Shown here: piece by piece, positions 4,274 through 50,682 of the stretch
How the letters are laid out: each line of letters begins with the position of its first letter
How positions within the stretch are numbered: the first letter of the stretch is position 1
DNA from: an uncultured Solirubrobacteraceae bacterium
Lineage (GTDB): Bacteria; Actinomycetota; Thermoleophilia; Solirubrobacterales; Solirubrobacteraceae
Direction of reading: 5' to 3'
DNA length: 64,000 bases
Assembly (NCBI GenBank): GCA_964588985.1
Contig: CAZPQW010000003.1
Location: 64,001-128,000, forward strand
Made by a program: the position numbers and the translations under genes
The notes under the pieces: model-generated
Databases searched by the model: none
What the model was told of the DNA's origin: nothing
Seen by the model: only the letters and a program-made list of their open reading frames with translations

Positions 4274-4303
4274 TTGCGAACCTGCGCAGTCGTTTGCTAG
4301 ACC
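4274..4303 (+). promoter_or_regulatory. putative sigma70-type promoter of secreted cassette 1
   Basis: TTGCGA-N18-TAGACC with extended -10 TG; same signature at 40236 and 50654. Confidence 0.5.
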
Positions 4304-4376: not shown

Positions 4377-4447
4377 CCGCTCCGGAGCCGGAATCAAGAC
4401 CCCCTGGTATCGGCCAGGGGAACAACAACAGGAGCGTACAACGATGC
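4377..4447 (+). promoter_or_regulatory. conserved leader motif, copy 1
   Basis: CCGC..GGAGCCG..hairpin(CCCCTGG/CCAGGGG)..ACAACAACAGGAGC..ACGATGCG; related copies at 40354, 47111, 63541. Confidence 0.5.
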
Positions 4448-4646
4448 GAGTGTCGCGTCCAGGGTATGTGTCTGTCTTGTGGGGAGCGGGTTCGGCGACC
4501 GTCCGAGGACCGGAGTGCGCGCGAAAGCGATTATCGCGTGCACCAACCGGAAACGGGGGGTTGCGCCACCCGCGTCAATCAAACAGGATCAGTCGCATTG
4601 ATGGACTCTGTGCTCGCATCGTGCTCCGTAAGTCAAGGAGCATCAC

Positions 4647-5387
4647 ATGAATCGCATCAGAGTAATTGGGCTCGCACTGATCGCCGTGTTCGCGTTTGGC
4701 GCAGCCGCAGCCTACGCTACGGAAGGGCCGTGGTGGCAGGTTGGGGGCAAAAGACTTGCTGCGGGCGCAGAAGCCTTACTGTTAGCGTCAGCCAAGGAAA
4801 AGTTTGTCCTCAAATCTTCGTCTCCCACCAAAACGACAATCATTTGTACCAAGTTGACCCTGCCGGTCGCTAACGAGATGCAAATCATTGGGTTAGCGTC
4901 TGGGAATGGCGGCATAAGCCTAGAGGTTCTCGAATACAAAGAATGCGAAGTGGAAAACAACGGGACTGGATGTGAAGTCGAAAACAAATCGATCAAAACG
5001 TCCTTAATTCTGAACTTACTTGGATATGGAAACGAAGGCAAGACCGGCAACGTGTTAGTGCTTTTTGAGCCGGCGACTGGTAAAGTATTTACTACTATCA
5101 AATTTGTAGGGTCATGTACCGTGACTTCGCTTCCGGTGTTGGGAAGTACGATTGGCTTGGCTAGAGTAGGTGAAGAACCGGTTCCGATCGGTAATAAAAC
5201 CGAAACGCTACATGGGGAAGTTGCCTTCCCGCATGCTGAAACTATCTTTATTGAAAGAAATAAAATACTGAAAAGCGTGAAAGCAAAACTCGAAGCTGCC
5301 ACCTTCCCAGCCACGTTGAGTGGTGTGGCGTTATTGTTAGTAGATTTACTTGGTGGGCCCGCGAATCCTTGGGGTGTATTTAGCTAG
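4647..5387 (+). CDS. secreted Cys-containing beta-rich protein (small subunit of cassette 1)
   Basis: Signal peptide MNRIRVIGLALIAVFAFGAAAAYA, AAGGAG RBS, 4 Cys, AT-rich codon usage. Confidence 0.85.
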   Translation: MNRIRVIGLALIAVFAFGAAAAYATEGPWWQVGGKRLAAGAEALLLASAKEKFVLKSSSPTKTTIICTKLTLPVANEMQIIGLASGNGGISLEVLEYKECEVENNGTGCEVENKSIKTSLILNLLGYGNEGKTGNVLVLFEPATGKVFTTIKFVGSCTVTSLPVLGSTIGLARVGEEPVPIGNKTETLHGEVAFPHAETIFIERNKILKSVKAKLEAATFPATLSGVALLLVDLLGGPANPWGVFS

Positions 5388-5466
5388 TGGGATAGTCGGT
5401 GGTGTGGAGTCGTGGTATGCCGTGCGGCTCCGCACCCGTTTAGGTTCATGCGCAAGGGAGTGTGTG

Positions 5467-7710
5467 ATGAGGGGATCGCTTGCAGCGCTGCGTGGTGTAG
5501 TCGGTGTTTTGGCTTTGGCATTTGTGTTGGGATTGATGGGCGTCGTGGAGGAGAGAGCCGTGGCTTCGCCGGGCTGTGCGAACACCGGATATGAAGGGTT
5601 TGAGGAATTGCTTCCTGGGTGTGGAGCGTATGAGCGCGTCACCCCACCGTTCAAGGCTGGGTCTCAGGTGCTGACTCGCGCGATATCCGGAGACGGCTCT
5701 CGTGTTGTGACCGAATCGACTGGTATCTTCGCGGGAGAGGAAGGGGATAGCAGGACCGCGTTCTATGAAAATGTGCGGTCGGGGGCTGGATGGGTGACAG
5801 CGGCGCTCGATCCATCGTCGCTCTCGTACCCTGCTCAAGAACTGGAAGACGTGAGTGCGGATTTGAGTCGTAGCCTCTGGGTCCTGCGCAGTCCCGCGGA
5901 ATCGGCCGCGAGTGAGAATTTGGCTATACGTGAACCGGACGGATCGTTCGTGACTATCGGGCCTATGGTGCCGCCAGCGGAGGCAGCAGGCCCGGAGGCG
6001 GGGGAAACACAGGGGTTCGCCGATGCCACGGAGCTGCAATATGCGAGTGCTACGTCGAATTTGTCACGCGTGTTCTTTGAGATCCGGGGCGCCGGGCCAA
6101 AATGGCCCGGCGACACCACGCAAGCCAACAATGGCACGGAGTCGCTGTATGAGTACGTGGATAAAGGCGAAACGGAACCAAGACTCGTAGGCGTCAACGG
6201 GGAAGGGCTGCTGATCAGCAACTGTGGCTCGGCGCTTGGATCCATCGATCTCAGTGGCCTAGAAACGGCAGACGGATATAACGCAGTATCTGAAGACGGC
6301 GAAAGTGTTGCCTTCACGGCCGCGGGTCATCAGGGAGGGAACGGATGTAAAGCAACCAGTAATGCGCCTGAAGTAAATGAACTGTATGTGCGAGTGGGAC
6401 TTGATGCGGGGGCTCGTACGGTGGCGATCTCTGAGCCGACAGCGCTGGATTGCGTTGTGTGTCAGTCGTCCGCTACGCAGGCCAGCGCCGAATTTCAAGG
6501 TGCTTCAAAGGACGGGTCGGAGGTGTTCTTCCTCACAGAACAAGAACTATTTAAAGAAGCAACTGGCAAGAACTTGTATGAGTACGATTTTGATAATCGG
6601 CCGGGCCATAAGATCATCCGCGTGTCGGTTGGAGCCAAGGAACCTGAAGTTCTAGGTGTAGCGCGGGTTTCTGAGGACGGTTCGCATGTCTATTTTGTCG
6701 CGCAGGGTGCGTTGACAGTCGGTCCGAACGCGGAAGGAGCCGAACCCATACCAGGCGAGCCGAACTTGTACGTGTTTGAGCGCGATACTACCTACCCAAC
6801 AGGTCATCTAACCTATATCGCAACGCTATCCGCCGAAGATCATGCAGATTGGAGCGAAACGGATAACCGTCCAGTGCAAGCAACGCCGGATGGTCGGTTC
6901 GTGGTGTTTCAAAGCCTAGCGGATTTGACTTCAGGCGATGCGAGCTCCGTCACACAGGTGTTTGAGTACGATGCACTGAAAGAAGAACTAGTGAGGGTGT
7001 CGATAGGTGAGCCAGGGTACGCGGCAGGACAGCAAAGCGCAGAACAGAGCGCGTCAAGGATCCCTAGACAGCGGTTTTTCAAAGCAGTCTCTGTGGCACA
7101 AGCGACAAGTAACGTGGCGATCGCGGAAAATGGGTCGGTGGTGGTATTTGGGAGCAGAGGGGGGCTGACGGCACAGGCTGCGCCAGCAAGCGAAGCAGGT
7201 AGTGAAAGTCTGTATGAGTATCGGAGTAGCGGTGGTATGATCTCGCATGGAAAAGTGTACCTGCTCGACGGAAGTCCTGGATTCAATGCGATTGCGGTCG
7301 GAACAGATGCTTCGGGATCAGATGCATGGTTGTCGACGGAAGCGCCGTTGGTGCCTTCGGACAGTGATACTCAGGTTGATTTGTTCGATGTGCGAGATGA
7401 TGGCGGGTTTGCGCGCGTGATAGAAGGTGATTGCAGGAAGGCGCTGGGTGGGTGTCACGGTGTAGATGGGGAAATCCCGAGTTTTGGGGGAGTTGAAAGT
7501 CTGGGTGTGCCGGAAGGCGAAGCGCCAGTAATGCCTCTGCGGTCGGCGCCTACCTTGGGGCCGGTGTCGGGGTCGAGGAATGCGCGGAGGCTCGCTAGAG
7601 CCTTGAAGGCCTGTGGGAGAAGAAGGCCTGGTCGAGAGCGGCGCGCTTGCGAAGCATCTGCTCGGCGACGATTCAGAAGTGTGAAGGTGACGAAAGCGCG
7701 AGGTGAGTGA
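5467..7710 (+). CDS. secreted beta-propeller (TolB/PD40-like) protein with basic Cys-Cys tail
   Basis: Signal peptide; repeated S-x-DG-x-x-V-x-F blades; C-terminal LARALKAC...RACEASARRRF. Confidence 0.8.
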   Translation: MRGSLAALRGVVGVLALAFVLGLMGVVEERAVASPGCANTGYEGFEELLPGCGAYERVTPPFKAGSQVLTRAISGDGSRVVTESTGIFAGEEGDSRTAFYENVRSGAGWVTAALDPSSLSYPAQELEDVSADLSRSLWVLRSPAESAASENLAIREPDGSFVTIGPMVPPAEAAGPEAGETQGFADATELQYASATSNLSRVFFEIRGAGPKWPGDTTQANNGTESLYEYVDKGETEPRLVGVNGEGLLISNCGSALGSIDLSGLETADGYNAVSEDGESVAFTAAGHQGGNGCKATSNAPEVNELYVRVGLDAGARTVAISEPTALDCVVCQSSATQASAEFQGASKDGSEVFFLTEQELFKEATGKNLYEYDFDNRPGHKIIRVSVGAKEPEVLGVARVSEDGSHVYFVAQGALTVGPNAEGAEPIPGEPNLYVFERDTTYPTGHLTYIATLSAEDHADWSETDNRPVQATPDGRFVVFQSLADLTSGDASSVTQVFEYDALKEELVRVSIGEPGYAAGQQSAEQSASRIPRQRFFKAVSVAQATSNVAIAENGSVVVFGSRGGLTAQAAPASEAGSESLYEYRSSGGMISHGKVYLLDGSPGFNAIAVGTDASGSDAWLSTEAPLVPSDSDTQVDLFDVRDDGGFARVIEGDCRKALGGCHGVDGEIPSFGGVESLGVPEGEAPVMPLRSAPTLGPVSGSRNARRLARALKACGRRRPGRERRACEASARRRFRSVKVTKARGE

Positions 7711-10700
7711 TATGCAGCAACGCGTGAAGCGTCGCGGCTTGGGCTTTGGGGTGTTTGTGCTAGCGGGTTTTGCCCTTCTGGCCGTATCTCCGGTAAATTC
7801 GTGTGCATCGGGAGGGGTAGCGTGGGGGGTGCATGGTGTGGCGTTGCCATCTGAGTTTGTTGCGGGCCCAGGCGATAGATATGGGCTATTGGTAGCGAAC
7901 GTCGGTGACACGGGAGGGAGTGGTACGATAACTTTGCGAGATCATTTGCCTGAGGGGCTGGCCATGGTGAGTTTTGAATCGCGATCGGGGTTGGAAGGTG
8001 GGAGCTGGCTGTGCGGTGAAACCGAACCATCAGTCGTTACATGCACGTTTGAAGAACTGTTGCCGGCAGGTGTTTATGCGCCAGAGCTTGAGATAGAAGT
8101 ATCTGCGCCGAGTGAAGAAGGCGCTTCACTGGAAAACCAGGTCATCGTCAGTGGTGGAGGCGCAAGCATCCCGGTTTCGACGGTCGAGAGGACGCCGGTT
8201 GGCAACGCACAGCAGGCGTTTGGGATATTGGAGTTCAGCATGGAAGCCCGAAATGCAGACGGATCGGTAGCGGTGCAGGCTGGTGGGCATCCGTGGCAGG
8301 TAACGACGAGTATTGGGTTTCCGTGGACGGTCGCGACATCCACCGGGGAAGGCCTTCATTACTCGCAGGTGCAGAATATGAAGAAACTTGCAGTGGAACT
8401 ACCGGCGGGGATGGGGGGAAATCTGCTCGCGACACCGGAACGGTGTACTCAGGTTCAGCTGCATGGTGGCATATGTCCGGCATCGAGTCGTGTCGGCTCG
8501 ATCGCGTTGACCGCAGGGCAATATCCATACGCGGAATTTCGAGATTCTGGTGAAGGAGAACCGTCGCCTGTGTTCAATATGGTGCCCGAGCCGGGATATC
8601 CCGGGCAGCTTGGGTTTACCTATCTACAGCAGCCTGTCTATGTCGATGCGACGGTTGTGCACAGCAATGCCGGAGAGCGTGTTCGGCTAACGGTCGTCAG
8701 TGTGCCCGCCATCCTCGAAGCGGGGGATGTGGTACTCACCGTATGGGGTGAGCCTGGCATGCTGAACGGGAGTGATTCAGAGGAGGCTTTGATCACGAGC
8801 CCGACTACGTGTAGCGAAGGGACATTGACCGCACGCCTGGAAGCAGAATCTTGGGGTAGCCAAGGTCACCCAGCAGTGGCCGAAGCGCCCGTGTATAAGA
8901 AGATTACAGGGTGTGAATCGCTGTTGTCTCCGTTCACGCCACAGGTCGCGCTCTCTCCGCTAGCTAGCAGTGGGGAACCGTTGACGCAAATGGCTGCTGA
9001 CACTCCGTCAGGCGTCTTGGGCATAGCTAGTATTCCACAGACTACCGCGTTCGGCGAAAACGCCGTGGCGAACGTAAGAAATGTGAGCGTGACCCTACCC
9101 CAGGGCCTCTCGATATCGCCCGCGGTCGCACAGGGCCTCGTGGGCTGCCAGGAACGCGGCCCGCACGGCATCAACCTGGGCACCTCGCGCATAGGTCCCG
9201 GCGGAGTTGATGAAGGCAACTCGGAAGCAACGGAATTCGGTGCGGGCCACGTGGGCGGGAACGGCAGCCCCTACGACGACGGCCAGTACCACGCCGCGCC
9301 GGGGCACTGCCCGCAGGAATCGATCATCGGCACGGTCGAAGTGTTCACGCCGCTCCTGGAAAACCGCTGTGGCGGAGGAAGACGCGTGTGCGAACAAGGC
9401 GAATCGCCGGCGCCTCTTCAGGGTCGCGTGTTTGTTGCGCAGCCACAGTGTGGCGGAGCCGGACAAGCTGCGTGCACGGGCGCTGATGCCGAAGACGGCG
9501 TGCTGTTTTCCGGATACGTCGAACTGTCCGGCGACGGAGTGTTGATAAAGGAGCGTGCCACGATCTCAGTGAGTCAGGCTACCGGTCAGATGTCGCTGCA
9601 GTTGCGGGAACTCCCGCAGCTTCCATTCAGCGAAGTAAAGGTCAGTGTCGAAGGCGGCCCACGCGCTCCGCTCGCGACGCCACAGGCATGTGGGACGGCG
9701 ATGACGACCTCGGCGGTCACCTCGTGGAGCGCGAGCAGCGGCGAAGCGTTCGTCCCAGTGCCGAGCTTCTTTACCGTTGACGCTGACGGTGCAGGCCGTA
9801 GCTGTCCCGCTGTCTGGTCCTTCACGCCAGGGTTCACAGGCGGCAGCACCTCTAAGACGGCTGGCGGGTTCACACGCTTCATGACGACGTTCACGCGTCA
9901 GGACCGCGAACAGAACGTGACAGGCCTCTCGGCTAGCACGCCGCCCGGGCTCCTAGCGATGATCTCGAGCGTGACGCCATGCCAAGAACCACAGGCCTCC
10001 GCCGGGGAATGCCCCGAATCGAGTCTGATCGGGCACGACACCGTCGGCGCAGGCTCAGGCCCCGACCCGTACTACGTCGCCGGGAAGGTCTACCTGACAG
10101 GCTCCTACAAGGGCGCCCCGTTCGGGTTGGATGTCGTCACGCCTGCGGCCGCGGGACCATTCAATCTCGGGAACATCCTGGTCCGGGCGAAGATCGACGT
10201 GAACCCGAGCACCGCCCAGGTCACCATCACAGGAGATCCGATCCCGCAATCTCAACTGGGGGTTCCGCTGCGTCTGAAAGCGCTGAACGTAACGATCGAC
10301 AGAGAACACTTCGTGATCAACCCTACGAACTGCGCCCAGCAGCACGTGACCGCTGTCGCGACGGGCAATCAGGGCGCCACGGCCAGTCTGTCATCGCCCT
10401 TCGCGGTAACGGGCTGCCCAGCTCTGCCATCAAGCCCCGTCGTGAAGGTCTCCACTGTGGGGAAGGCAAGCAAACGCAGCGGCGCTCAGCTCACCTTCAC
10501 GCTGACCCACGCCGCGGGACAGGCGAACATAAAGTCGATCAAGACGGATCTGCCCAGGCAGTTGCCGTCGCGATTCTCGACGCTGCAGAAAGCGTGTCCG
10601 GACACCGTGTTCAACGCGAATCCCGCCAGCTGCCCGGCGGGATCGCTAGTCGGCACCTCGGTTGCCCACACGCCGATCCTCAAATCGCCGCTTACCGGCC

Positions 10701-11062
10701 CCGCCTACCTCGTGAGTCACGGGGGGGCGGCATTCCCGGACCTCGTCCTCGTGCTCCAGGGCGAAGGCGTCACCATCGAGGTGGTCGGCAACACCGCTGT
10801 CAAGCACGGCATCACGAGCGAGACCTTCAAAACGATCCCGGACGCTCCATTCACGAGCTTCACCGCGACGTTCCCGCAAGGGCCGCACTCGATCCTCGCG
10901 ACCTACCTTCCCGCCAAGGCCAAATACAACCTCTGTGGGCAGAACCTGAAGATGCCCATCCGCATAACTGCGCAGAACAACAAGCTCACCGCTGAGACCG
11001 TCAAGATCGGTATCGCGGGCTGCAAGCACAAAACGAAAGCCAAGAAGGCCAAGAAACACTGA
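7703..11062 (+). CDS. large secreted Cys-repeat protein with N-terminal DUF11-like Ig domain
   Basis: Signal peptide; ITLRDHLPEGL/N-x-V-x-VSGGG Ig motif; four LPxG...C...CPxxSxxG repeats; Lys-rich tail; paralogue of 43716-46961. Confidence 0.85.
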   Translation: MSDMQQRVKRRGLGFGVFVLAGFALLAVSPVNSCASGGVAWGVHGVALPSEFVAGPGDRYGLLVANVGDTGGSGTITLRDHLPEGLAMVSFESRSGLEGGSWLCGETEPSVVTCTFEELLPAGVYAPELEIEVSAPSEEGASLENQVIVSGGGASIPVSTVERTPVGNAQQAFGILEFSMEARNADGSVAVQAGGHPWQVTTSIGFPWTVATSTGEGLHYSQVQNMKKLAVELPAGMGGNLLATPERCTQVQLHGGICPASSRVGSIALTAGQYPYAEFRDSGEGEPSPVFNMVPEPGYPGQLGFTYLQQPVYVDATVVHSNAGERVRLTVVSVPAILEAGDVVLTVWGEPGMLNGSDSEEALITSPTTCSEGTLTARLEAESWGSQGHPAVAEAPVYKKITGCESLLSPFTPQVALSPLASSGEPLTQMAADTPSGVLGIASIPQTTAFGENAVANVRNVSVTLPQGLSISPAVAQGLVGCQERGPHGINLGTSRIGPGGVDEGNSEATEFGAGHVGGNGSPYDDGQYHAAPGHCPQESIIGTVEVFTPLLENRCGGGRRVCEQGESPAPLQGRVFVAQPQCGGAGQAACTGADAEDGVLFSGYVELSGDGVLIKERATISVSQATGQMSLQLRELPQLPFSEVKVSVEGGPRAPLATPQACGTAMTTSAVTSWSASSGEAFVPVPSFFTVDADGAGRSCPAVWSFTPGFTGGSTSKTAGGFTRFMTTFTRQDREQNVTGLSASTPPGLLAMISSVTPCQEPQASAGECPESSLIGHDTVGAGSGPDPYYVAGKVYLTGSYKGAPFGLDVVTPAAAGPFNLGNILVRAKIDVNPSTAQVTITGDPIPQSQLGVPLRLKALNVTIDREHFVINPTNCAQQHVTAVATGNQGATASLSSPFAVTGCPALPSSPVVKVSTVGKASKRSGAQLTFTLTHAAGQANIKSIKTDLPRQLPSRFSTLQKACPDTVFNANPASCPAGSLVGTSVAHTPILKSPLTGPAYLVSHGGAAFPDLVLVLQGEGVTIEVVGNTAVKHGITSETFKTIPDAPFTSFTATFPQGPHSILATYLPAKAKYNLCGQNLKMPIRITAQNNKLTAETVKIGIAGCKHKTKAKKAKKH

Positions 11063-40235: not shown

Positions 40236-40264
40236 TTGCAACTCTTCGGCATGTCTGTTAGACA
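40236..40264 (+). promoter_or_regulatory. putative sigma70-type promoter of secreted cassette 2
   Basis: TTGCAA-N17-TAGACA with extended -10 TG. Confidence 0.5.
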
Positions 40265-40353: not shown

Positions 40354-40426
40354 CCGCACGGAGTCGAGTCGAACCATAGTCACGATCTGGCCGTACGGCC
40401 AGCTCACAACAACGGGAGCACGATGC
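40354..40426 (+). promoter_or_regulatory. conserved leader motif, copy 2
   Basis: CCGCACGGAG..CGAACCATAGTCACGA-CTGGCCGTACGGCCAG-CTCACAACAACGGGAGCACGATG. Confidence 0.5.
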
Positions 40427-40623
40427 GCAAGACTCTCTACGGTCGGGGAACTGTCCCTACGGGGCTCTGCACGACGGATGTCGGCATGTCTGAATTCGCG
40501 GTCGGACGATTACCGCAGCGCGAATCAGCGATCGGCGCCTGCGGGAGAAGTCCGTACACAGGGCTCGGCGAGCTAGATATCGACTTGCGTCCTCATGCTC
40601 CTCATACAAAGGAGCGGTAAGCA

Positions 40624-41193
40624 ATGCAACGCATCAAGCTCGTAGGACTCGCCCTCGTGGCCGTGTGCGCCATTGGCGTCACGTCGGTTGCGAGCGCGGG
40701 AGCAAGCAACTTCTTAGCATCCGCGACCGGTGCACTGACCGGCAAAGCATTACAGAACCAGAAATTCGTGACCAAAGCGGGCGAAGTCGTCTGCACCACG
40801 ATCGCAGTCAGCGGCACAGTGAAAACAACGAAAGCCACAACGCAGGTCGCCACGGTGAACTACACCGGCTGCAAAGCCTTCGGGCTCGCAGCGACGATCA
40901 CGCCGGCCGAATATGAATTCAACGCCAATGGCTCGGTCAAGATCCTCAACAACATCATCATCACCGCGACGGCATGTGAAGTGAAAGTCCTCGCGGCGAA
41001 CAACACCTCGCTGAACACCGTCAAATACGTAAACAACGGTGGTGGCCAGCTCGGAATCAACCCCGCTGTCAAGGGCATCACGTCAGAAGGCGTTGGCGCC
41101 GGGTGCACCTACGCACTGGAAAGCAAAGGCACGTACGAAGGTAACTCCGACTCCGGCCTCAAAGCCGGCGGAACCCTAAGCTGGGACGCGTAG
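40624..41193 (+). CDS. secreted Cys-containing beta-rich protein (small subunit of cassette 2)
   Basis: AAAGGAG RBS; signal peptide; YTGCKAFGLAATITPAEYEFNANGSV motif shared with three paralogues. Confidence 0.88.
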   Translation: MQRIKLVGLALVAVCAIGVTSVASAGASNFLASATGALTGKALQNQKFVTKAGEVVCTTIAVSGTVKTTKATTQVATVNYTGCKAFGLAATITPAEYEFNANGSVKILNNIIITATACEVKVLAANNTSLNTVKYVNNGGGQLGINPAVKGITSEGVGAGCTYALESKGTYEGNSDSGLKAGGTLSWDA

Positions 41194-41231
41194 TCCCTTG
41201 TCGTAACGACGCGCCATGTTGTTACATGGTC

Positions 41232-41257
41232 ACGTCATGTAGTGACGTCATGTAGTG
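41232..41257 (+). repeat. 13-bp tandem direct repeat
   Basis: ACGTCATGTAGTG x2. Confidence 0.8.
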
Positions 41258-41364
41258 TTTGCTGTTAGTGTACGGACGGTGGCTGCCTTCTCGGTGGTCA
41301 CCGTCCGCATTTCAGAGTCTTAGTCGTCAAGGGGAATAAATTGAAGACATGTCGGGAGACTGCA

Positions 41365-43719
41365 ATGCGCGGTTGGACGGTGTCGATTCGTGGCGCTCTC
41401 ACCGGCATCGCCATGGCCATAGCATTGTCCGCGCTGCTCGCTGCGACGCTGCTGTTTGAGTCCGGCGACGCCTTCGCCCTCTCGTCCTGTCCAAATGCCG
41501 CCGAGATCACGGGGGCATCGACCTCGCTTCCCGATTGCCGCGCCTACGAGAAGGTCTCCCCGACAGAAAAGGGTGGCTTCGCATCAATCACGGCGGGGCT
41601 CACACCCGTTCAGCTTTCCCCCGAAGGCGAACGAATCGCCTATTTCGGAAATGAGGCCTTCCCTGGAGCGCTGGGTAACACCGCGTTGTTGGCTGCGCAC
41701 GTCAGCGCTCGATCCGAAACCGGCTGGGAAACAACCGAGCTAACGCCAGAAGTGCCCATCGCCGAAGCGGCGAAGGCCTACGTGGTCGGCTATGACTTCT
41801 CGAAGGACGTTTCACAGGCGGTCATCCGCGTACCGCTGGTCGCACTGACGCCGAAAGCGACACCGGGGGTCTTCAACCTCTTCCTGCGCGATCCGAGCGG
41901 AGCCTACTCGCTGGTGAACAACGCGCAGCCAACGGTCTCGGCCGAAGCACAGTGCCCCGTGGCGCTGCTTGCGATCTGCTTCTTCATCGCCGACTTCTCG
42001 GCATACGCCGGCGCGTCTGAAGACGAGTCGCACATCCTCTTCGAGTCGACCTCGCAGCTCACGCCCGAAGCGCCCCCGCCAGTAGAAGAAATTCCCGTCG
42101 AAAGCCTCTACGAAAGCTCCGGCGGGCACGTTCGGCTTGTCGGCATCCTGCCCAGCGGCAGCCCCGCCACCAGCGCGACGGCCGGCGCTGGCAGCAAGGC
42201 CGCGTACACCACTGGCGAATACATCGACAGGCGCGTGGAAAACGCGATCTCGAAAGACGGCTCGCAGGTCGTCTTCCAGGCACCCGCCGGTGGCGGCGAA
42301 GGCGAACCGGACATCGAACAAGCCGGCCTCCCGGAGGTCTACGATCGGATCGACGCTGAAACGACCGTCGAGCTGTCGGCCCCTGCGCCAGGGCCAGCGC
42401 CGGCCGTCACGACCCCTGAGCCGGCAACGTTCTGGGCTGCCTCCCAAGATGGGTCGCACGTCTTCTTCACAAGCAGCGCCGAGCTGACCGCACAGTCGAA
42501 CACGGGCAGCGAAAACAACGGCGCCGACCTATACGAATACAACGTCGACAGCCGGTCGCTGAAAGACATCACCGTCGACACGAACGGCGCGGACGCCACG
42601 ACGGGGCCGATGGTTCAGGGTGTCGTCGGCGCGTCGAGCGACGGCTCGTACATCTATTTCGTGGCGCTGGGTCAGCTGGTCCCCGGCAAAGGCGTCGACG
42701 GCCAGCCGAACCTCTACATGGAGCACAACGGCGGCAACCCGGTGTTCATCGCCACGCTGAGCAGCTCCGGAACGTGTTCGCTGCGCTCGGAAAAAAGCAG
42801 CGCGGATTCCTGCGACTGGACCGCCTCTCCAGCAGAACTCGAGGCGTACGTCGGGCTCGACGGAAGGCATATGGCATTCATGTCGACGATGAGCCTGCCG
42901 ACGGCGAACTTCGAATCGGGATACGACAACACCGACCAGATCACGGGCGAAGCCGACAGCGAGGTTTACGAGTTCAGCGCCCCGAGCGAATCCGAAGAAT
43001 CGGGGAGGCTGATATGCGTATCGTGCGATCTCAGCGGCGCCCGACCGGTCGGCAACGCTCTGATAGGCGGCATCACGCAGCTGGTCGAATCAAAACCCGG
43101 TAAGCAGCCGTTTGCGGGGATGAGCACACCGTTTGCGCGCGTGCGCGCCCTGAACGAAGCCGGCACTCGAGTGTTCTACAGCGCTCCGGGTAGGCAGGGT
43201 CATCCATTCAGTCAGGTCTTCGAGTACGAGCAGGACGGAGAAGGCAGCTGCGAAACCGTTGGCGGTTGTCAATATCTCATCTCCGACCCCACCGGCGGCG
43301 CAAACGACCAGTTCCTGGGTACGAGCTTGGATGGTCGCGACGCTCTTATCGCCACGTCGAGCCGACTCACCGCGGACGACATCGACAATCTCTCCGATGT
43401 CTACGATGCTCGTGCTGGGGGAGGCTTCACGGTGCCAGTCGCCCCTGCCACGTGTGAAAACACGTGCCGCGAACCAGGCGCGACGCCCAGTGCTGGTCCG
43501 CCGTTGCTGAGCGCCTCGACAGGACCTTCCAGAAACCTGACGATCACCACGGCGAAGCCTCTGACGAGAGCACAGAAGCTGGCAAAGGCCCTGAAGGCAT
43601 GTCGCGCGAAACGCAGCAGACGCAAGCGCGCGAGCTGCGAGTCCGCGGCACGACGGCACTACGGCGAGAGGAAAGGGATGGCCACGAGGTCCGCGACCCA
43701 TCGGGGGGCGAAGCGATGA
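41365..43719 (+). CDS. secreted beta-propeller protein with basic Cys-Cys tail
   Basis: LPDCRAYEKVSP; S-x-DGS-x-VFF blades; tail AQKLAKALKAC...SCESAARRHYG; paralogue of 5467-7710. Confidence 0.85.
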   Translation: MRGWTVSIRGALTGIAMAIALSALLAATLLFESGDAFALSSCPNAAEITGASTSLPDCRAYEKVSPTEKGGFASITAGLTPVQLSPEGERIAYFGNEAFPGALGNTALLAAHVSARSETGWETTELTPEVPIAEAAKAYVVGYDFSKDVSQAVIRVPLVALTPKATPGVFNLFLRDPSGAYSLVNNAQPTVSAEAQCPVALLAICFFIADFSAYAGASEDESHILFESTSQLTPEAPPPVEEIPVESLYESSGGHVRLVGILPSGSPATSATAGAGSKAAYTTGEYIDRRVENAISKDGSQVVFQAPAGGGEGEPDIEQAGLPEVYDRIDAETTVELSAPAPGPAPAVTTPEPATFWAASQDGSHVFFTSSAELTAQSNTGSENNGADLYEYNVDSRSLKDITVDTNGADATTGPMVQGVVGASSDGSYIYFVALGQLVPGKGVDGQPNLYMEHNGGNPVFIATLSSSGTCSLRSEKSSADSCDWTASPAELEAYVGLDGRHMAFMSTMSLPTANFESGYDNTDQITGEADSEVYEFSAPSESEESGRLICVSCDLSGARPVGNALIGGITQLVESKPGKQPFAGMSTPFARVRALNEAGTRVFYSAPGRQGHPFSQVFEYEQDGEGSCETVGGCQYLISDPTGGANDQFLGTSLDGRDALIATSSRLTADDIDNLSDVYDARAGGGFTVPVAPATCENTCREPGATPSAGPPLLSASTGPSRNLTITTAKPLTRAQKLAKALKACRAKRSRRKRASCESAARRHYGERKGMATRSATHRGAKR

Positions 43720-46700
43720 CGCCACTGGGACCAGGTCGCATGCGAGCAACGAGGCGCGGTCGCCGAGGGGCGTGCCTGACGGTCATGGCAATGGTGCTGT
43801 GCATAGCGCCGAGGGCCGCGACGGCCGCAACGCCAGCGGCACATTGGACCGCGATCACCCAGGCAGCGCCTACATACCTCCATCCGGGTGATACCAGCGA
43901 TTTCTTCGAAATCATCGCCGATAACGACGGTTCGGCAACGGCGGGAGGACCGATCGTCATCACCGATCAGCTTCCGGCTGGTCTGGCTGTGAACGCTGCC
44001 ACCGCCTACGCGGAAATCCTCGGTGTGCGAGAGACATCGTTCGAAGAATTCCTCGAACCCTGCACGCAGGAAAGCAAAGCAGGCGCCGTGACGCTGACAT
44101 GCACGATCAACGCGAACGTGCCGATCGGCCGCGCGGTCGTGCTGAACATCAACGTCCAAGTGCCCGAAGGCGCAGCGGGAGCGCTTACGAACACGGCGAC
44201 GATCTCGGGGGGTGGCGCGCCGCAAGCCACGACCACCGTGACGGCACCCGTAAAACCGGCCTCAGAAGAAGCCGTGCCATTTGGAGCCGCGCTCACGGCC
44301 GACGCGACCGACGCGAGTGGGGGAGTCGCATCGCAAGCTGGAGCGCATCCCTTCATGTTCACCACGCTTTTGGACTTCAATGTCGCAAAGGTGAACCCGA
44401 TAGAGGAATGCAACGAAGGTCTCACGCACAGCTGCGCTGAACTGAACGCACAGGCCAAGGACATCGAAGTGGCCCTGCCGGCAGGTTTCGTGGTCAACCC
44501 CACGGCGATCCCCTACTGCACGCAGGCGCAGTTCGAACTCAGCCGAGAAAGCTGTCCGGCGGCATCACAGGTCGGCAGCATCTATCTGTACTTCTATTCG
44601 AACCAAACAGCCGTCCAGTATGCGCCTGTCTACAACATCGAACCGCCTCCGGGAGAGCCCGGCGAGCTCGGCTTCACCATCAGCACCACGGCTCATATCT
44701 CCATGTACGGCCACGTGCGCAGTGACGGAGACTACGGACTTACCGCCGACATCTCAGGCATAAATCAATTCGACCCGGTGCGAGCCGCGGCCCTATCACT
44801 CTGGGGCAACCCATCCGATGAAGCCCACAACGTGCTTCGCCTGACCGAACTCCAGACCTGCGAACCGGGCGAAGGCTGCTCGAGCGGCGTCATCTTGCCG
44901 AAACCGTTCCTGACGATGCCGACGAGCTGTTCGGCGGAACCGCTGGCCATTCCGATAGCGGGCGACTCCTGGCAGGAACGCAAGCCGGCGCCTTACCCGC
45001 ACCTTGGGGAAGCGAGCATCCCCGGAATGACCGGCTGCGATCAGCTCAGGTTCAACCCATCCCTAACGGCGCAACCAAGCAGTCATCGGGCCGGCGCGCC
45101 GACCGGATATGAGCTCGACCTGAAGGTGCCGCAGAACGAAGAACTCAACGGGCTCGCGACACCATCCGTCCGCAACGTCGAAGTGACACTGCCGGAAGGC
45201 ACGGTCGTCTCGCCGTCGGGGGCCAACGGGCTGGTGGCGTGCAGCGCAGCGCAGTTCGAACTGACGCAGCGCGCAAAGGGCCACTGTCCGAGCGCGTCCA
45301 AGATCGGATCGGTGGAAATAACGACGCCGCTCTTGAAGGACAAGGTCAACGGGGCGCTGTACGTCGGCGAACCAGAATGCTCGCCCTGCAGCCCCAGTCA
45401 AGCCGAATCTGGGCAGATGGTGCACCTCCTGCTCGAAGCCGAAGGCTCCGGTGTCGTCATCAAGCGCGAAGGACACACACGCATCAGCCAGGCGGGGGGA
45501 CAGCTGACGGCGGTCTTCACCGAAAACCCGCAGCTTCCGTTCAGCGATCTGCACGTCTCGCTCGAACAGGGACCAGGTGCTCCGCTTGTCAACTCGAGCA
45601 CATGTGGATCGACGATCACGACTGCCGCGATCACCCCGTGGAGCACGACGACAGCGTCGAAAATCGCGGCGCCGGAAGCGTCGATCGAAGGCTGTGCTCC
45701 TGAAGGCTTCGCGCCATCGTTCCGGGCCGGCGCGACCACCAGCGCCAAGTCCGGTGCGTTCACGGGCTTCTCGGTCACCATGTCGCGTGCGGACGGCGAA
45801 CAGAAGCTCGGGCGGGTCAGTGTGACCACGCCGCCCGGGATGCTGGGCGTGCTCAAGAGCGTCGAACAGTGCTCCGAAGCAGCGGCTAACGCGGGAACGT
45901 GCTCGGGAGCCTCGCAGATCGGGACGGGCTCGTTCACGCTTGGCGCAGGCTCAACGCCACTGACGATCAACGGCGGAAAGGTCTACCTCACCGGCCCATA
46001 CGAGGGCAAGCCATTCGGTCTCTCGATCGTCGCACCCGCGCAGGCAGGACCGTTCGTCCTGGCGGGGAACGCGGGGAACGGCACAGAGGTCGTGAGGGCG
46101 TCGATTGCTATCGATCCACACACCTCCGCGCTTACCGTAACGAGCGATCCGCTGCCACAGCAGCTCAACGGCGTGCCATTGAGCATCCGGACGATCAACA
46201 TCGACATCAATCGCGAAGGCTTTACATTCAACCCCACCAACTGCGACGCGATGTCTGTCAACGGAGTGATCGTGAGCGCGACCGGGACCATCAGCAACGC
46301 GTCGTTCCCGTTCCAGGCGACTGACTGCGGGATCCTCCCGTTCAGGCCAAGGTTCACGGCGACCACACAGGGCAAGACGAGCAAAAAAAACGGAGCGTCC
46401 CTGCACGTGAGAGTCACCTCGGGTCACGGGCAGGCGAACATCGGGAAAGTCAAGGTGAGTCTGCCGATCCAGCTGCCGTCGAGGTTGGCGACGCTGCAGA
46501 AAGCGTGCATCGACAGCGTCTTCGAAGCCAACCCAGCCTCGTGCCCCGCTGCGTCTGCGGTCGGACAAGCCACGGCGATCACGCCGCTGCTGAAGCGCCC
46601 GCTGACCGGGCCGGCATATCTTGTGTCGCACGCTGGTAGGGCGTTCCCCGACCTGCAGATCGTCCTGCAGGGAGAAGGCATCAACCTGGTCCTCACCGGC

Positions 46701-46961
46701 AACACGGACATCAAGAAAGGCGTGACCTCGAGCACCTTCAAAGCCGTTCCCGATGCACCGATCACGAGCTTCGACCTCGTGTTGCCCGAGGGTCCTCATT
46801 CGGTGTTCGCGGCATTCGGCAACCTCTGCACCAGCACGCTGAACATGCCAACGATCATCACCGGGCAAAACGGCGCGGTGATCAAACAGACGACGAAGAT
46901 CGCCGCGACCGGCTGCCCGAAGCGCAAGACCAGCAAGCACTCGACCACGAAGAAAGGCTGA
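43716..46961 (+). CDS. large secreted Cys-repeat protein with DUF11-like Ig domain
   Basis: ATGA overlap; ITDQLPAGL/NTATISGGG; QAGAHP; four Cys repeats; basic tail; paralogue of 7703-11062. Confidence 0.85.
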   Translation: MTPLGPGRMRATRRGRRGACLTVMAMVLCIAPRAATAATPAAHWTAITQAAPTYLHPGDTSDFFEIIADNDGSATAGGPIVITDQLPAGLAVNAATAYAEILGVRETSFEEFLEPCTQESKAGAVTLTCTINANVPIGRAVVLNINVQVPEGAAGALTNTATISGGGAPQATTTVTAPVKPASEEAVPFGAALTADATDASGGVASQAGAHPFMFTTLLDFNVAKVNPIEECNEGLTHSCAELNAQAKDIEVALPAGFVVNPTAIPYCTQAQFELSRESCPAASQVGSIYLYFYSNQTAVQYAPVYNIEPPPGEPGELGFTISTTAHISMYGHVRSDGDYGLTADISGINQFDPVRAAALSLWGNPSDEAHNVLRLTELQTCEPGEGCSSGVILPKPFLTMPTSCSAEPLAIPIAGDSWQERKPAPYPHLGEASIPGMTGCDQLRFNPSLTAQPSSHRAGAPTGYELDLKVPQNEELNGLATPSVRNVEVTLPEGTVVSPSGANGLVACSAAQFELTQRAKGHCPSASKIGSVEITTPLLKDKVNGALYVGEPECSPCSPSQAESGQMVHLLLEAEGSGVVIKREGHTRISQAGGQLTAVFTENPQLPFSDLHVSLEQGPGAPLVNSSTCGSTITTAAITPWSTTTASKIAAPEASIEGCAPEGFAPSFRAGATTSAKSGAFTGFSVTMSRADGEQKLGRVSVTTPPGMLGVLKSVEQCSEAAANAGTCSGASQIGTGSFTLGAGSTPLTINGGKVYLTGPYEGKPFGLSIVAPAQAGPFVLAGNAGNGTEVVRASIAIDPHTSALTVTSDPLPQQLNGVPLSIRTINIDINREGFTFNPTNCDAMSVNGVIVSATGTISNASFPFQATDCGILPFRPRFTATTQGKTSKKNGASLHVRVTSGHGQANIGKVKVSLPIQLPSRLATLQKACIDSVFEANPASCPAASAVGQATAITPLLKRPLTGPAYLVSHAGRAFPDLQIVLQGEGINLVLTGNTDIKKGVTSSTFKAVPDAPITSFDLVLPEGPHSVFAAFGNLCTSTLNMPTIITGQNGAVIKQTTKIAATGCPKRKTSKHSTTKKG

Positions 46962-47110: not shown

Positions 47111-47177
47111 CGCACCTCGGAGCCGAACCATAGTCACGACCTCGGCCAACGGGCCTAGATCACAACGACCTAGAGCG
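47111..47177 (+). promoter_or_regulatory. conserved leader motif, copy 3 (orphaned)
   Basis: CGAACCATAGTCACGA identical to 40370-40385, preceded by GGAGC and followed by GGCC..GGCC and TCACAAC. Confidence 0.5.
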
Positions 47178-47275: not shown

Positions 47276-47367
47276 CCCGGCCAATTGGAACTGCGGACCC
47301 CAGCGACCCTAGACCTTGCGACGGTCTCCGTGGGGCTCAAAACCAAACTGATGCACTACCCCCATAC
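47276..47367 (+). repeat. diverged copy of the IS right end (direct repeat of 50413-50503)
   Basis: ~90-bp direct repeat with about 7 differences counted by eye; ends in AAACTGATGCACTACCC-CCATAC. Confidence 0.9.
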
Positions 47368-47941: not shown

Positions 47942-48132
47942 ACAGGCGTTTGCGCCGTTTCCTGGCTGCTCGAAACGATTGCCTTGTCTTCGGCCGGCTC
48001 CCAACGGGGTCGTCCAGGGAAGGCGTCAGTTGCCCCGTCCCACGACGTGATGTCACGCGAGACAATGGCGGCGTGGGAGACGAACTCACTCGATGTCATT
48101 TGCTCAATCGGCGTGATCTTCCCAGCCATCAT
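47938..48132 (-). CDS. hypothetical 64-aa protein coupled to the SDH protease
   Basis: AAGGAGG RBS in protease 3' end; ATGA overlap. Confidence 0.5.
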   Translation of the reverse strand: MMAGKITPIEQMTSSEFVSHAAIVSRDITSWDGATDAFPGRPRWEPAEDKAIVSSSQETAQTPV

Positions 48133-49163
48133 TCCTCCTTTAGTCGGCCGAAGGCCGTAATCCTGCTTGCCAATAGTGCTCTCTCGACTGCCTTCACGCG
48201 CTCGTTCAATGAATCCGTGGCATCAACAAGCGGCAGAAACCCGCCCGATTCGACCTCCTGTCGATCGATCACGAACCCATGCTCAGGATACCGGTTCACA
48301 AGCCAATCGGCGATCTTATTCGCCCGCTCCTCGGGAGCGCCGGCCAACAGGAGGAGTCGCACTGCGTAGTGCTGCGCGACGGCCAGAATGCGGGCTTGCT
48401 TAGCATAATGCACAGCGTCGATCTTGTTGAGCATTGGACACATCATGTCGCTCACGAACTTGGCGGCGATCGGGAGCAGGACGTCTGTTTTTTTGTGGGT
48501 CGCGCCTACCATCGTGACCATCGTCTGGTCTAGGTGTTGGAGCGCCACAGAGTGGAGCTGTTCGAGCGCTTGAACCTCGTTGAGGGCGCTACCCGGCTCC
48601 TCGCGCTCCTCGTCCCACAACTGAGCGTCGAGAGGGCCGATCTCAGCGTCCTCTCCCATGAGCGCGCGTGTTGCCCCAAGCGAAAGCAGCGTGGCAGCGC
48701 TCTTGGCATACCGCGGAATCACCACCGTAAAGCCGCCATCTCGTTGCAGAACGCGAGCAAGGCGGTAGGCAACCTCTGCAAGGCCGCCGGGCGAGTCGAT
48801 CAGAAGGGCTACGTGGCCGTCGGATGCCAGTTCGTCTCGTGCATCGAGGAATTTCGTGAGAAGCGGCTCGTAGAGGCCAATTGGTCGTTGGGCGCCAGAC
48901 TGCACAAGCATCCATACAGGCACACCTAGTGCTGTCTCCAGCTCCTTGACGGCTTTGCCGAAGTCATCCGGTAGAGGACCATGCGGCGCCAAGCTCCCGC
49001 TATAGAAGGTTCGTTTCGGGGTTGCCGCTGGTTTGCTGGCCTTTGACGCGGCAGCGACCGCCGCCTTCGCCGTCGCCCGCGGTGCTCGACCGTTGCTCTT
49101 CCGTCCGTTCGCTGATCGGGACGGGACAGCTGCAGGCGATTCGGCCACCGCCCGAGTGTACAT
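48129..49163 (-). CDS. SDH family Clp-fold serine protease
   Basis: LLIDSPGG, PRYAKSAATLL, IGPLDAQ, YPEHGFVID; start uncertain. Confidence 0.85.
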   Translation of the reverse strand: MYTRAVAESPAAVPSRSANGRKSNGRAPRATAKAAVAAASKASKPAATPKRTFYSGSLAPHGPLPDDFGKAVKELETALGVPVWMLVQSGAQRPIGLYEPLLTKFLDARDELASDGHVALLIDSPGGLAEVAYRLARVLQRDGGFTVVIPRYAKSAATLLSLGATRALMGEDAEIGPLDAQLWDEEREEPGSALNEVQALEQLHSVALQHLDQTMVTMVGATHKKTDVLLPIAAKFVSDMMCPMLNKIDAVHYAKQARILAVAQHYAVRLLLLAGAPEERANKIADWLVNRYPEHGFVIDRQEVESGGFLPLVDATDSLNERVKAVERALLASRITAFGRLKEE

Positions 49164-49266
49164 AGACTCCAGGCGGAGTTCCAAAAATCTTGACGATTGT
49201 TGTCGATTGACCCAGCCTAGGGGCCTTAGACGATCTGCCGTTCTGTCCGACCGCTCACGCATAAGG

Positions 49267-50094
49267 TTGAGCATCGAGCGGCGCGCGCAGATCCTCGCGA
49301 TGCTCACGGAGGGGAACAGCATGAGGGCGACGGCCCGTATGGCGGGCTGCTCGTTCAACACGGTGTCGAAGCTGCTGCTGGACGTGGGCGGGGTCTGCAC
49401 GGAGTTTCAGGACCGCACGCTGCGCGATCTGCGCTGCACGGAGGTCCAGTGCGATGAGATCTGGAGCTTCGTCGGCTCGAAGGCCAAGAACGTGCCCGAG
49501 GATCGCAAGGACGAGTTCGGCGTCGGGGACGTGTGGTGCTGGGTCGCGATCGACGCCGAGTCCAAGCTGGTCCCGTCATGGCTGCTCGGGGAGCGCAAGA
49601 TCGGCGACTGCACCACGTTCCTCAACGACCTACGCGACCGGCTCCGCTATCGCATCCAGCTCTCCACGGACGCGCACGCGAGCTACAAGGGCGCTGTGGG
49701 CCTCGTGTTCGGAGGCGACATCGACTGGGCGCAGATCATCAAGGACTACAAGGCTACGAACATCCCTCCGGGCCGCTACAGCCCGCCAGCCTGCACGGGC
49801 GTCCGAGTCAAGGCGCAGCTCGGAGACCCGGATCTCGCCAAGGCCAGCACCAGCTACATCGAGCGTCAGAACCTCACGATGAGGATGAACATGCGCCGGT
49901 ACACGAGGCTGACCAACGCGTTCTCGAAGAAACTGGAGAGCCACGCGGCGGCGGTGGCGCTGCACTTCATGGCCTACAACTTCGTGCGTCTGCACCGGAC
50001 GCTCGCTAGCCCGTATCCACGTACCCCGGCTATGGCAGCCGGGGTAGCAGACCACATCTGGACGCTGCAAGAGGTTGCAGCGCTACTTGACTAA
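49267..50094 (+). CDS. IS1-family DDE transposase (single ORF)
   Basis: HTH EGNSMRATAR; CDEIWSFVG, LSTD, TSYIERQNLTMR..RRYTRLTNAFSKK; start probably TTG. Confidence 0.9.
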   Translation: MSIERRAQILAMLTEGNSMRATARMAGCSFNTVSKLLLDVGGVCTEFQDRTLRDLRCTEVQCDEIWSFVGSKAKNVPEDRKDEFGVGDVWCWVAIDAESKLVPSWLLGERKIGDCTTFLNDLRDRLRYRIQLSTDAHASYKGAVGLVFGGDIDWAQIIKDYKATNIPPGRYSPPACTGVRVKAQLGDPDLAKASTSYIERQNLTMRMNMRRYTRLTNAFSKKLESHAAAVALHFMAYNFVRLHRTLASPYPRTPAMAAGVADHIWTLQEVAALLD

Positions 50095-50360: not shown

Positions 50361-50653
50361 CGGAAGGTCCAGCCTTTCGGTGTCACGGCCGGGGGGCCGT
50401 TGTCGCGGTCGCCCCGGCCAATTGGAACTGCGGACCCAGCGACCCTAGACCGTGCGACGGCCTCCGTGGGGCGCAATTTCAAACTGATGCACTACCCCCA
50501 TACACCCGATAATGCATGTTATGTCAACCAGGCATTGCACTTGAGCGGTCGTCCTACGTCCATTATCGCTTTCAGTGTTTCCGTCTTGAGCTGGTCGAAC
50601 CCTAGTTGCTACTGGCGTATTGACACCGGCCGCATTAATCGAGCTAGCTGCAC

Positions 50654-50682
50654 TTGCGTGCGTGTCGCACGTCTGCTAGACC
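50654..50682 (+). promoter_or_regulatory. putative promoter with the cassette signature
   Basis: TTGCGT-N17-TAGACC with extended -10 TG. Confidence 0.5.

Follow-up and report, generated by a model that had tools for sequence, protein, structure and literature searches.

Translational control by upstream open reading frames (ORFs) and by hairpins that mask a Shine–Dalgarno (SD) site is already well known. In attenuators of the erm/cat type (ermC, ermB, ermD, cat, cmlA) a short upstream ORF comes with an SD of its own, a hairpin sequesters the main SD, the position of the ribosome picks an alternative pairing, and what counts in the peptide is a short motif, not its full length; ErmDL carries Arg-Leu-Arg. 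In hok/mok, long-range pairing between 5′ and 3′ parts governs access to the SD, and the main frame is coupled to an upstream frame that overlaps it. Translational ON riboswitches and RNA thermometers set a closing helix against an anti-SD/SD hairpin, with two states predicted to be similarly stable. All these features have observed or proposed counterparts in the element described here, a leader that precedes genes of secreted proteins in an uncultured Solirubrobacteraceae bacterium (genome G000: 3.41 Mb, 48 contigs, ∼68% G+C) and that came to light in a DNA stretch of 64 000 nt, positions 64001–128000 of its contig C3 (the window).

Further related systems are on record: an Arg/Lys-X-Arg/Lys stalling motif (PMC8298421); upstream ribosome-binding sites (RBSs) acting by translational coupling and by ribosome-mediated RBS occlusion (PMC13285730); and the arrest peptides known as monitoring substrates (SecM, MifM, VemP, ApdA, ApcA, ApdP), which, like the leader, combine an upstream ORF that holds a short Arg-containing motif with an SD-masking stem (PMC10987492) and include members from actinobacteria (PMC10987492, PMC7897499).

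The original prediction, made from the letters of the window, had noted a motif that starts with CCGC at 4377 and again at 40354, in each case exactly 270 nt before the ATG of a gene for a cassette subunit (4647 and 40624). On re-reading the sequence we obtained the same two offsets; their exact agreement is partly coincidence, as the internal spacings are unequal (203 versus 201 nt from the upstream ATG to the gene ATG, 7 versus 2 nt from GGAGC to GATGCG). The hairpins of the two copies differ in sequence and still pair, as had been claimed; they are followed by ACAACAACAGGAGC in copy 1 and ACAACAACGGGAGC in copy 2, then by ACGATGCG. Two further copies were also as described: copy 3 (47111–47177) has the exact 16-mer CGAACCATAGTCACGA in common with copy 2, and copy 4, on the minus strand, contains GGAGCCG..CATAGGAGTCA and the stem TTGGGAA/TTCCCAA. 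The motif seen at first, however, made up only the initial 70 nt of a conserved unit that reaches the gene start and measures ∼280 nt; it had escaped notice that GGAGC..ATG reads as the ribosome-binding site and start of an upstream ORF, and that the leader ends in an anti-SD/SD hairpin.

The leader is a real, conserved and undescribed cis-regulatory element. A profile built from the five genomic leaders found five full copies in G000 with E-values of 1.7e-54 to 3.2e-64, and the similarity is therefore far beyond chance; it also found one 3′ half-copy (C3:44356–44485, E 2.4e-4), and matched copy 3 only at E 0.64. The full copies precede five of the ∼21 subunit paralogues of the genome (the window genes 4647 and 40624; C5:42154, minus strand; C6:15452, plus strand; C24:15174, minus strand). 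Subunits 1 and 2, the proteins encoded downstream of copies 1 and 2, share just 21–23% identity, so that the leader is better conserved than its gene; the C24 locus is a close duplicate of copy 2 (proteins 77% identical). The alignment of the five upstream regions showed conserved islands with nearly fixed spacing through to the gene start: hairpin; CAACAAC-R-GGAGC; 2–7 nt; GATGCG; 73–87 nt; ACGATTAYCG; 80–85 nt; TGCTCC; 7 nt; AAGGAGC; 5–8 nt; ATG. Here ACAACAAC-R-GGAGC..ACGATGCG represents an A/C-rich spacer, an SD site (SD1) and the start codon of the upstream ORF. The module upstream of the hairpin recurs in related forms in copies 2–4 and in other genomes' leaders; copies 3 and 4 hold this module and the hairpin only, without SD1, its ATG or any part downstream. 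Of the description as cis-regulatory RNA or operator, the first half stands; the term 'operator' could apply to no more than the module ahead of the hairpin.

No known family accounts for the leader, as had been anticipated. Rfam 15 gave no match at gathering thresholds anywhere in the window; scans of both leaders by E-value (up to E 10) returned only noise, with best E-values of 0.68 and 0.75 and scores of 12–16 bits, to be compared with thresholds of 39–90.

Two pairings involve the 3′ end of the leader. In hairpin P4, UGCUCC pairs with the main SD, GGAGC(A), over a loop of 7–8 nt; P4 is present in all five G000 leaders and in none of 16 upstream regions of other paralogues. In helix P1, obtained with RNAalifold from the five genomic leaders, GGAGCAU pairs with AUGCUCC, and GAUGCG.. 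with the preceding stretch, so that the whole leader is closed; the strands are ∼170 nt apart, and the upstream AUG often lies within the helix. All 27 leaders examined are predicted to form a duplex between 18 nt starting at SD1 and 21 nt ending in GCUCC, with free energies from −15.7 to −29.6 kcal/mol. Even without the GGAGC:GCUCC core, which is trivially complementary, strands pair better with flanks of their own leader (−10.8 kcal/mol) than with flanks of other subfamilies (−7.9 kcal/mol; means, 632 pairs), and in a permutation test on 11 subfamily representatives none of 5000 permutations reached the observed mean. The two P1 strands thus co-vary, by RNAalifold as well as by permutation; absence of co-variation had been named beforehand as an argument against the motif. 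Compensating changes are visible by eye, with GGAGCAGAC pairing with GUCUGCUCC in leader L085 and GGGC:GCCU replaced by AGGC:GCUU in a G/T-rich group of leaders. For the 5′ hairpin, P0, the 48 nt before SD1 fold at a mean z of −2.33 in 28 leaders (z < −2 in 17 of them), and the stem sequences are unrelated among leaders. For P2, the CGAUUAUCG palindrome, pairing outside the core was near background; P2 and a small hairpin further downstream, P3, are tentative structures.

Between the P1 strands the leader carries a coding signature. An SD (AGGAGC) stands 5–10 nt ahead of the upstream ATG, which is kept while its neighbours vary (CGATGCG, CGATGGG, CAATGCG, CGATGTG, GATGCA; L084 has GTG). The upstream ORF is 45–90 codons long, and its frame is open for at least 45 codons in 24 of the 30 leaders with a definable upstream start. 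Up to the anti-SD this frame contains no stop in six of seven genomic leaders (two in C24), whereas the two alternative frames of the same seven add up to 11 and 10 stops; in mononucleotide shuffles such an open frame arises with a probability of 0.09–0.17 for each leader. Distances from the ATG to the Arg codon are 60, 75, 78, 81, 84, 87, 90 and 111 nt, and as all are multiples of 3 the triplets of CGATTAYCG read Arg-Leu-Ser/Pro.

Arg-Leu stands in frame at codons 21–38 in 24 of the 30 leaders, with Gly as the preceding residue in 15 of these 24; the conserved motif is (Gly/Lys/Arg)-Arg-Leu-(Ser/Pro) at about codon 28–30. Its codons vary synonymously: CGA/CGG/AGG for Arg, TTA/TTG/CTA for Leu, GGG/GGA/GGC/GGT for Gly and TCG/TCT for Ser, with TCC, read by eye, in GGA CGA TTA TCC of L088. 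Among the full-length leaders found by a search pattern that does not contain the motif (the unbiased pattern, below), 10 of 15 have Arg-Leu in frame, including the variant forms CGG-TTG (L084, L086), AGG-CTA (L082) and CGA-TTG (L092). The peptide ahead of the motif is unconserved. After the motif, the island RAACCRAAAACNGG..UUGYG is read as PKTGGC, NQKL or SQKH; being read in different frames, it is kept at the RNA level. Many upstream stops fall between the anti-SD and the gene ATG, where they overlap or abut the latter: ATGA in leader 1 and in the leader of genome G313, TAATG in L059 and L107, and TAA 3 nt before the ATG in leader 2.

Two readings of the ORF were rejected. That it encodes a conserved protein is at odds with the lack of a Pfam or NCBIfam match for the two window peptides, with the lack of a third-position substitution excess and with the divergence of frames after Arg-Leu. 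Strict sensing of the rare codon TTA, in the manner of bldA, is made doubtful by the CGG-TTG, AGG-CTA and CGA-TTG variants. ARAGORN located tRNA-Leu(UAA) genes at C1:258520–258606 and C5:104171–104243; the second is only 73 nt long, short for a leucine tRNA. The five G000 upstream peptides are rich in Arg, Pro and Gly, and hydrophobic N-terminal parts, judged by eye without a predictor, occur only in the G/T-rich subgroup (G126, L062). In this subgroup (leaders L052, L060, L062, L063, L068, L074, L077 and L101) the stretch between upstream ATG and anti-SD is G/T-rich and C-poor; the upstream peptides are hydrophobic, and one GUUGCC lies in P3 and a second directly ahead of the anti-SD.

The subunit family itself was present in 149 of 201 sampled genomes of the genus (a tally that takes in G190, a genome flagged as unpublished). 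A strict pattern of three islands, CGATGCG..CGATTAYCG..TGCTCC, had no match in 100 relatives and proved too strict; a looser one revealed true leader homologues in G313 and G126, the latter G/T-rich and very divergent, with all islands kept. A metagenome search with CGATTAYCG..TGCTCC..AAGGAGC matched 20 loci, of which 12 continue into a subunit-like signal peptide (nine distinct sequences) and eight were false. The unbiased pattern, TGCTCC-N7-8-AAGGAGC-N4-12-ATG, does without the CGATTA requirement, and 300 genomes of the genus were scanned with it. In G000 it returned exactly the five leaders and no control match; elsewhere in the genus it matched 27 places in 15 other genomes versus 14 reversed-control matches, and 21 of the 27, in 11 genomes, precede a gene with a subunit-like signal peptide (the other six are false). 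In 118 genomes of other genera of the order the pattern had seven matches, and as all seven lie within long open frames, the leader is confined to the genus among the genomes searched.

The link to the subunit gene family was borne out, with one restriction on the claim that the element is dedicated to this system: the leader does precede subunit genes, but only five of 21 G000 paralogues have it, and a profile search found none at 29 loci of subunit homologues from other genomes drawn by protein similarity. Many leaderless homologues in other genomes of the genus (loci L018–L033) have another conserved sequence before the start codon, (T/C)CAATCGACAAAGGAGC(G/A)G..ATG, which may be a second type of leader.

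Upstream of the leader we found an element that looks like an extended −10 promoter, TTGNNN-N16-18-(C/T)TGNTAGA(C/T). It is present at 18 of 35 leader loci (at five of the 35 the upstream DNA was too short to judge), at ∼375 nt or ∼250 nt before the gene ATG, and also 83–95 nt before two leaderless paralogues. A scan for the sigma-70 consensus gave no promoter; that scan excludes the TAGAC(A/C) form of the −10. As the leader lies downstream of this conserved element it is probably transcribed, and the motif would begin ∼70 nt inside the transcript; a position outside the transcript, another of the objections raised beforehand, is thus improbable. In the form TTGNNN-N16-18-(C/T)TGNTAGAC(A/C), with TGN as extended −10, the element occurs in the window at 4294–4302, 40255–40263 and ∼50668–50680; it was also seen in L084, L086, L088, L101 and others, before leader-bearing and some leaderless subunit genes of this and other genomes.

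We think it somewhat better than an even chance that the motif is the 5′ part of a two-state translational switch controlled by the upstream ORF and set by ribosome occupancy of that ORF. What has been shown is that the parts exist and are conserved, that the upstream ORF carries a coding signature and that the strands of P1 co-vary. The order of parts would be, from 5′ to 3′, the promoter-like element, ∼70 nt of transcript, P0, the A/C-rich spacer, SD1, the upstream ATG with its ORF, the small hairpin with an A-rich loop, a variable stretch, the anti-SD UGCUCC, the main SD AAGGAGC and the gene ATG. UGCUCC with the 10–16 nt before it would be a strand with two alternative partners: in the P1 state it would pair with SD1, the spacer and the upstream ATG, hiding the upstream-ORF site and leaving the main SD free; in the P4 state it would pair with the main SD, hiding it and leaving SD1 free. 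A ribosome at the upstream start, or queued back to it, would cover the 5′ strand of P1, P4 would close and the gene would be off; with the upstream start empty, P1 would form and the gene would be on. A ribosome that reaches the anti-SD may open P4 briefly, and where the upstream stop overlaps or abuts the gene ATG it may couple into the gene. The Arg-Leu motif, most likely a programmed pause or arrest point, would set how long the upstream ORF stays occupied, perhaps through a queue. We infer the transcription start, translation of the upstream ORF, the pausing and the direction of control.

Folding of 12 leaders in which a 28-nt stretch was held unpaired as a ribosome footprint provides an equilibrium model only. 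With no footprint, the main SD was unpaired with probability 0.01–0.92, the two states being of similar weight. A footprint on SD1 and the upstream AUG lowered this probability to 0.00 in all 12 leaders; one on the anti-SD raised it to 0.2–0.97; one placed 50–78 nt beyond Arg-Leu, on the 3′ strand of P1, gave about 0.

Several observations weigh against the switch. Translation of the upstream ORF, on which it depends, is itself predicted from sequence. A footprint on Arg-Leu leaves the main SD at its baseline in 12 of 12 leaders, and because it changes nothing the equilibrium model gives no account of what Arg-Leu does; with the anti-SD ∼85 nt downstream of the motif, a ribosome stalled on Arg-Leu would be too distant to open it directly. 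In stability, P3 cannot be told from shuffled sequence (mean z −0.02; two of 29 below −1.5). Six of the 30 leaders have no Arg-Leu in frame (C24, with an 8-nt insertion; L107 and L099, with a frameshift; L096, with a stop at the Arg codon; L087 and L080, with a short ORF) and four 'mini' leaders (L095, L098, L103, L105) pass from SD1 and ATG almost directly to the anti-SD; hence either the motif can be dispensed with, or these copies are in decay. In the N-terminal 26 codons, comparison of close pairs revealed no third-position substitution excess, and so only the frame and the motif look selected. Stop positions vary, with about eight stops some 30 nt before the anti-SD and six past the gene ATG. 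Finally, CGA-TTA is invariant in the five G000 copies though both codons are expected to be rare at 68% G+C, which also fits a constraint at the RNA level; CGAUUAUCG is palindromic, and in 15 of 22 leaders the pairing extends by one position into its flanks. The apparent invariance of this island is inflated by the 13 leaders that were found with patterns requiring CGATTAYCG.

The main rival to the upstream-ORF switch holds that the ∼170 nt enclosed by P1 are the sensor of a riboswitch that binds a ligand or a protein, whose occupancy stabilizes P1 and turns the gene on, the open frame being secondary. The geometry is that of a translational ON switch, the closing helix having the anti-SD UGCUCC at the end of its 3′ strand; the RAACCRAAAACNGG..UUGYG island lies inside P1 and, read in different frames, is conserved as RNA; the CGAUUAYCG palindrome is the same in all five G000 copies; and the predicted baseline is a balanced mixture of two states. 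We nevertheless consider a riboswitch unlikely and the weaker reading. A conserved, co-varying, non-coding multi-helix aptamer core was not found in the leader: the 60–111 nt from ATG to Arg share no sequence, swing from GC-rich to G/U-rich and change length in steps of 3, the inner 80 nt likewise vary freely but only by 3-nt steps, Gly-Arg-Leu-Ser varies synonymously, and neither thermodynamics nor pairing lends P2 and P3 much support. In mini leaders the central region is absent, though SD1, ATG, anti-SD and SD are all present; Rfam has no matching family, and nothing points to a ligand. The suggestion that a cyclic dinucleotide, cyclic di-GMP or cyclic di-AMP, might be involved arose from a diguanylate cyclase gene at 55219; the gene is there (55219–56529, minus strand; GGDEF and a weak Cache domain), 9–50 kb from the leaders, but we saw no link of its product to them and no connection with either nucleotide.

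A sharper variant of the upstream-ORF switch makes the nascent peptide the sensor: ribosomes would arrest at Gly-Arg-Leu-Ser/Pro, ∼84 nt into the ORF, and queue back onto the start, and the anti-SD would shut the gene until a signal releases the arrest, the stall being the step that is regulated. The motif is short and conserved, with synonymous codons, within an otherwise free peptide, and conservation of the frame stops directly after it; a hairpin begins 11–16 nt after the Leu codon, approximately where, by the geometry we assume, a ribosome holding Leu in its P site would run into it. The known arrest motifs RAPP, RAPG and RAGP (PMC10987492) are likewise short, contain Arg and stand upstream of SD-masking stems. 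One could even read the queue as a ruler, as the distances of 60, 78–90 and 111 nt are close to two, three and four footprints of 28–30 nt. If this were true, arrest would repress rather than induce, with a new arrest motif and queue length as the ruler, outside the Sec/YidC context, and its release would let P1 form or ribosomes run through, switching on a secreted-protein cassette. Yet we find this variant quite unlikely, given a motif that is far from the C terminus and from the masked SD, is without effect in the folding model and is missing from six of 30 leaders, a downstream gene that is no Sec or YidC component, and upstream peptides that mostly have no signal or membrane segment.

Far less probable is an explanation at the DNA level alone, in which the islands would be promoter or operator sites of a transcription factor, and the hairpins and the open frame by-products. 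It could appeal to the promoter-like element with its extended −10, to the palindromic module GCTCCGGAGCC and to copies 3 and 4, which retain only the upstream module and the hairpin; but the promoter-like element lies 70–100 nt upstream of the motif, which places the motif beyond the likely start, and co-variation over 170 nt, compensating stems and conservation of frame with synonymous codons are signatures of RNA and translation rather than of an operator. Least credible of all is mere shared ancestry or gene conversion among recently duplicated cassettes. The leaders do precede paralogous genes, one of them (C24) a near-duplicate, but the islands are invariant at fixed spacing before subunits as different as 1 and 2, the architecture persists in other genomes of very different base composition, and P1 co-varies.

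Coordinates of the features in the window are collected in Table 1.

Table 1. Features of leaders 1 and 2 and of copies 3 and 4 (window coordinates)
Feature	Position	Strand	Details
Leader 1, predicted promoter	4274–4303	+	−35 TTGCGA 4274–4279; 18-nt spacer ending TGC; −10 TAGACC 4298–4303
Leader 1, putative transcription start	near 4310	+	placed from the promoter-like element; unmapped
Leader 1, upstream module CCGCTCCGGAGCCGGAATCAAGA	4377–4399	+	start of the motif of the original prediction; contains palindrome GCTCCGGAGC
Leader 1, hairpin P0	4401–4420	+	CCCCTGG 4401–4407 / CCAGGGG 4414–4420
Leader 1, A/C-rich spacer; SD1 GGAGC; upstream-ORF ATG	4421–4430; 4431–4435; 4444–4446	+	
Leader 1, P1 5′ strand	4421–4450	+	GGAGC and CGATGCGAG at 4442–4450
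Leader 1, upstream ORF	4444–4650	+	68 codons; TGA stop overlaps gene ATG as ATGA
Leader 1, CGA-TTA-TCG	4528–4536	+	Arg29-Leu30-Ser31 of upstream ORF; also small palindrome P2
Leader 1, island CAACCGGAAACGGGGGGTTG	4544–4563	+	probable hairpin P3, A-rich loop; from alignments; read in all three frames in different leaders
Leader 1, P1 3′ strand and anti-SD	4613–4627	+	CTCGCATCG 4613–4621; TGCTCC 4622–4627; duplex −18.7 kcal/mol
Leader 1, main SD and subunit ATG	4635–4649	+	AAGGAGC 4635–4641; ATG 4647–4649; SD pairs with anti-SD in P4
Leader 2, predicted promoter	40236–40264	+	−35 TTGCAA 40236–40241; 17-nt spacer; −10 TAGACA 40259–40264
Leader 2, 5′ part	40354–40430	+	upstream module; P0 CTGGCC 40387–40392 / GGCCAG 40397–40402; A/C-rich spacer
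Leader 2, SD1 and upstream ATG	40415–40419; 40423–40425	+	GGAGC; ATG
Leader 2, upstream ORF	40423–40620	+	65 codons; Arg-Leu-Pro 40507–40515; TAA ends 3 nt before gene ATG
Leader 2, 3′ part	40583–40626	+	P1 3′ strand (duplex −21.2 kcal/mol); anti-SD TGCTCC 40597–40602; main SD AAGGAGC 40609–40615; ATG 40624–40626
Copy 3, relic of the 5′ module	47111–47177	+	upstream module, weakened hairpin, CACAACGAC; no SD1, no ATG, no leader after
Copy 4	63541–63589	−	214 nt before subunit gene starting at 63375; no upstream ORF, no anti-SD

The genes behind the leaders encode secreted proteins of 183–248 aa that belong to no named family; in the window, subunit 1 (4647–5387) has 246 aa and subunit 2 (40624–41193) 189 aa, each with a signal peptide. 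Four of the five leader genes head three-gene cassettes, and C24 has no large genes after it; at least 10 G000 loci hold both of the large genes that follow the subunit gene in the window (∼790 aa with a PD40 repeat, ∼1140 aa with DUF11). Among the downstream genes we found no match to a resistance family: PD40 and DUF11 were the only Pfam or NCBIfam families that any of them matched. The cassettes of the window extend over 4647–11062 and 40624–46961, and no cassette gene belongs to a named family; database relatives of the subunit proteins are all 'hypothetical protein'.

Traces of rearrangement were seen around some copies. Direct repeats of 69 nt, 91% identical (47299–47367 and 50435–50503), bracket a 3.1-kb segment that lies between relic copy 3 and a third subunit gene and resembles an insertion; it holds an IS1-like transposase frame (49033–50094) and, on the opposite strand, a frame resembling SDH-type serine proteases (48129–49400). 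Between two tandem subunit paralogues on the minus strand (62806–63375 and 63664 to beyond 64000) lie copy 4 of the upstream module and a hairpin that resembles a terminator. Outside the window, at C3:44356–44488 (L004:557–689), stands the 3′ half of a leader (A-rich island, anti-SD, SD), followed by a 49-codon frame with a subunit-like signal-peptide start and then a stop, likely a truncated gene.

A search of one library of open-access papers on Solirubrobacter and Solirubrobacterales for riboswitches, upstream ORFs or leader peptides yielded nothing relevant, and we have not come across an account of the combination proposed here: an upstream ribosome site that would double as one of the switch's arms, a long upstream ORF that keeps only its frame and a four-residue motif, and, as target, secreted proteins of uncultured Solirubrobacterales that form a large family with many copies. 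This lineage is a major one in soils, and experimental genetics has barely touched it. If the upstream-ORF switch is true, it would offer a handle on the timing of cassette expression; Gly-Arg-Leu-Ser/Pro would become a candidate for the list of pause or arrest motifs, and the leader would be added to the compact elements with two states.

In its principle the leader resembles each of the known systems named at the outset, yet it departs from features that define them. Compared with translational ON riboswitches, it lacks a conserved aptamer core and an Rfam match, and its coding signature runs across the would-be aptamer. Compared with hok/mok, no antisense RNA, toxin or 3′-end processing is evident, and the upstream RBS would serve as a switch arm. 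Monitoring substrates have their motif at the C terminus, where the stalled ribosome melts the stem, carry an N-terminal signal or membrane segment and regulate secA, secDF or yidC; in the leader, the motif is at codons 21–38 of 45–90, 80–86 nt before the anti-SD, most of the peptides do not have such a segment, and the gene controlled would be that of a secreted protein. From attenuators of the erm/cat type the leader differs in several ways: their upstream ORFs have 8–36 codons versus 45–90 in the leader; they serve resistance genes, whereas secreted-protein genes with no antibiotic link lie downstream of the leader; the leader's motif is 85 nt from the masked SD, and a stall at Arg-Leu does not free the main SD in the equilibrium folding model; and the competing partner of the anti-SD, which in erm/cat-type attenuators is an adjoining segment, is here the upstream ORF's own ribosome site, 170 nt away.

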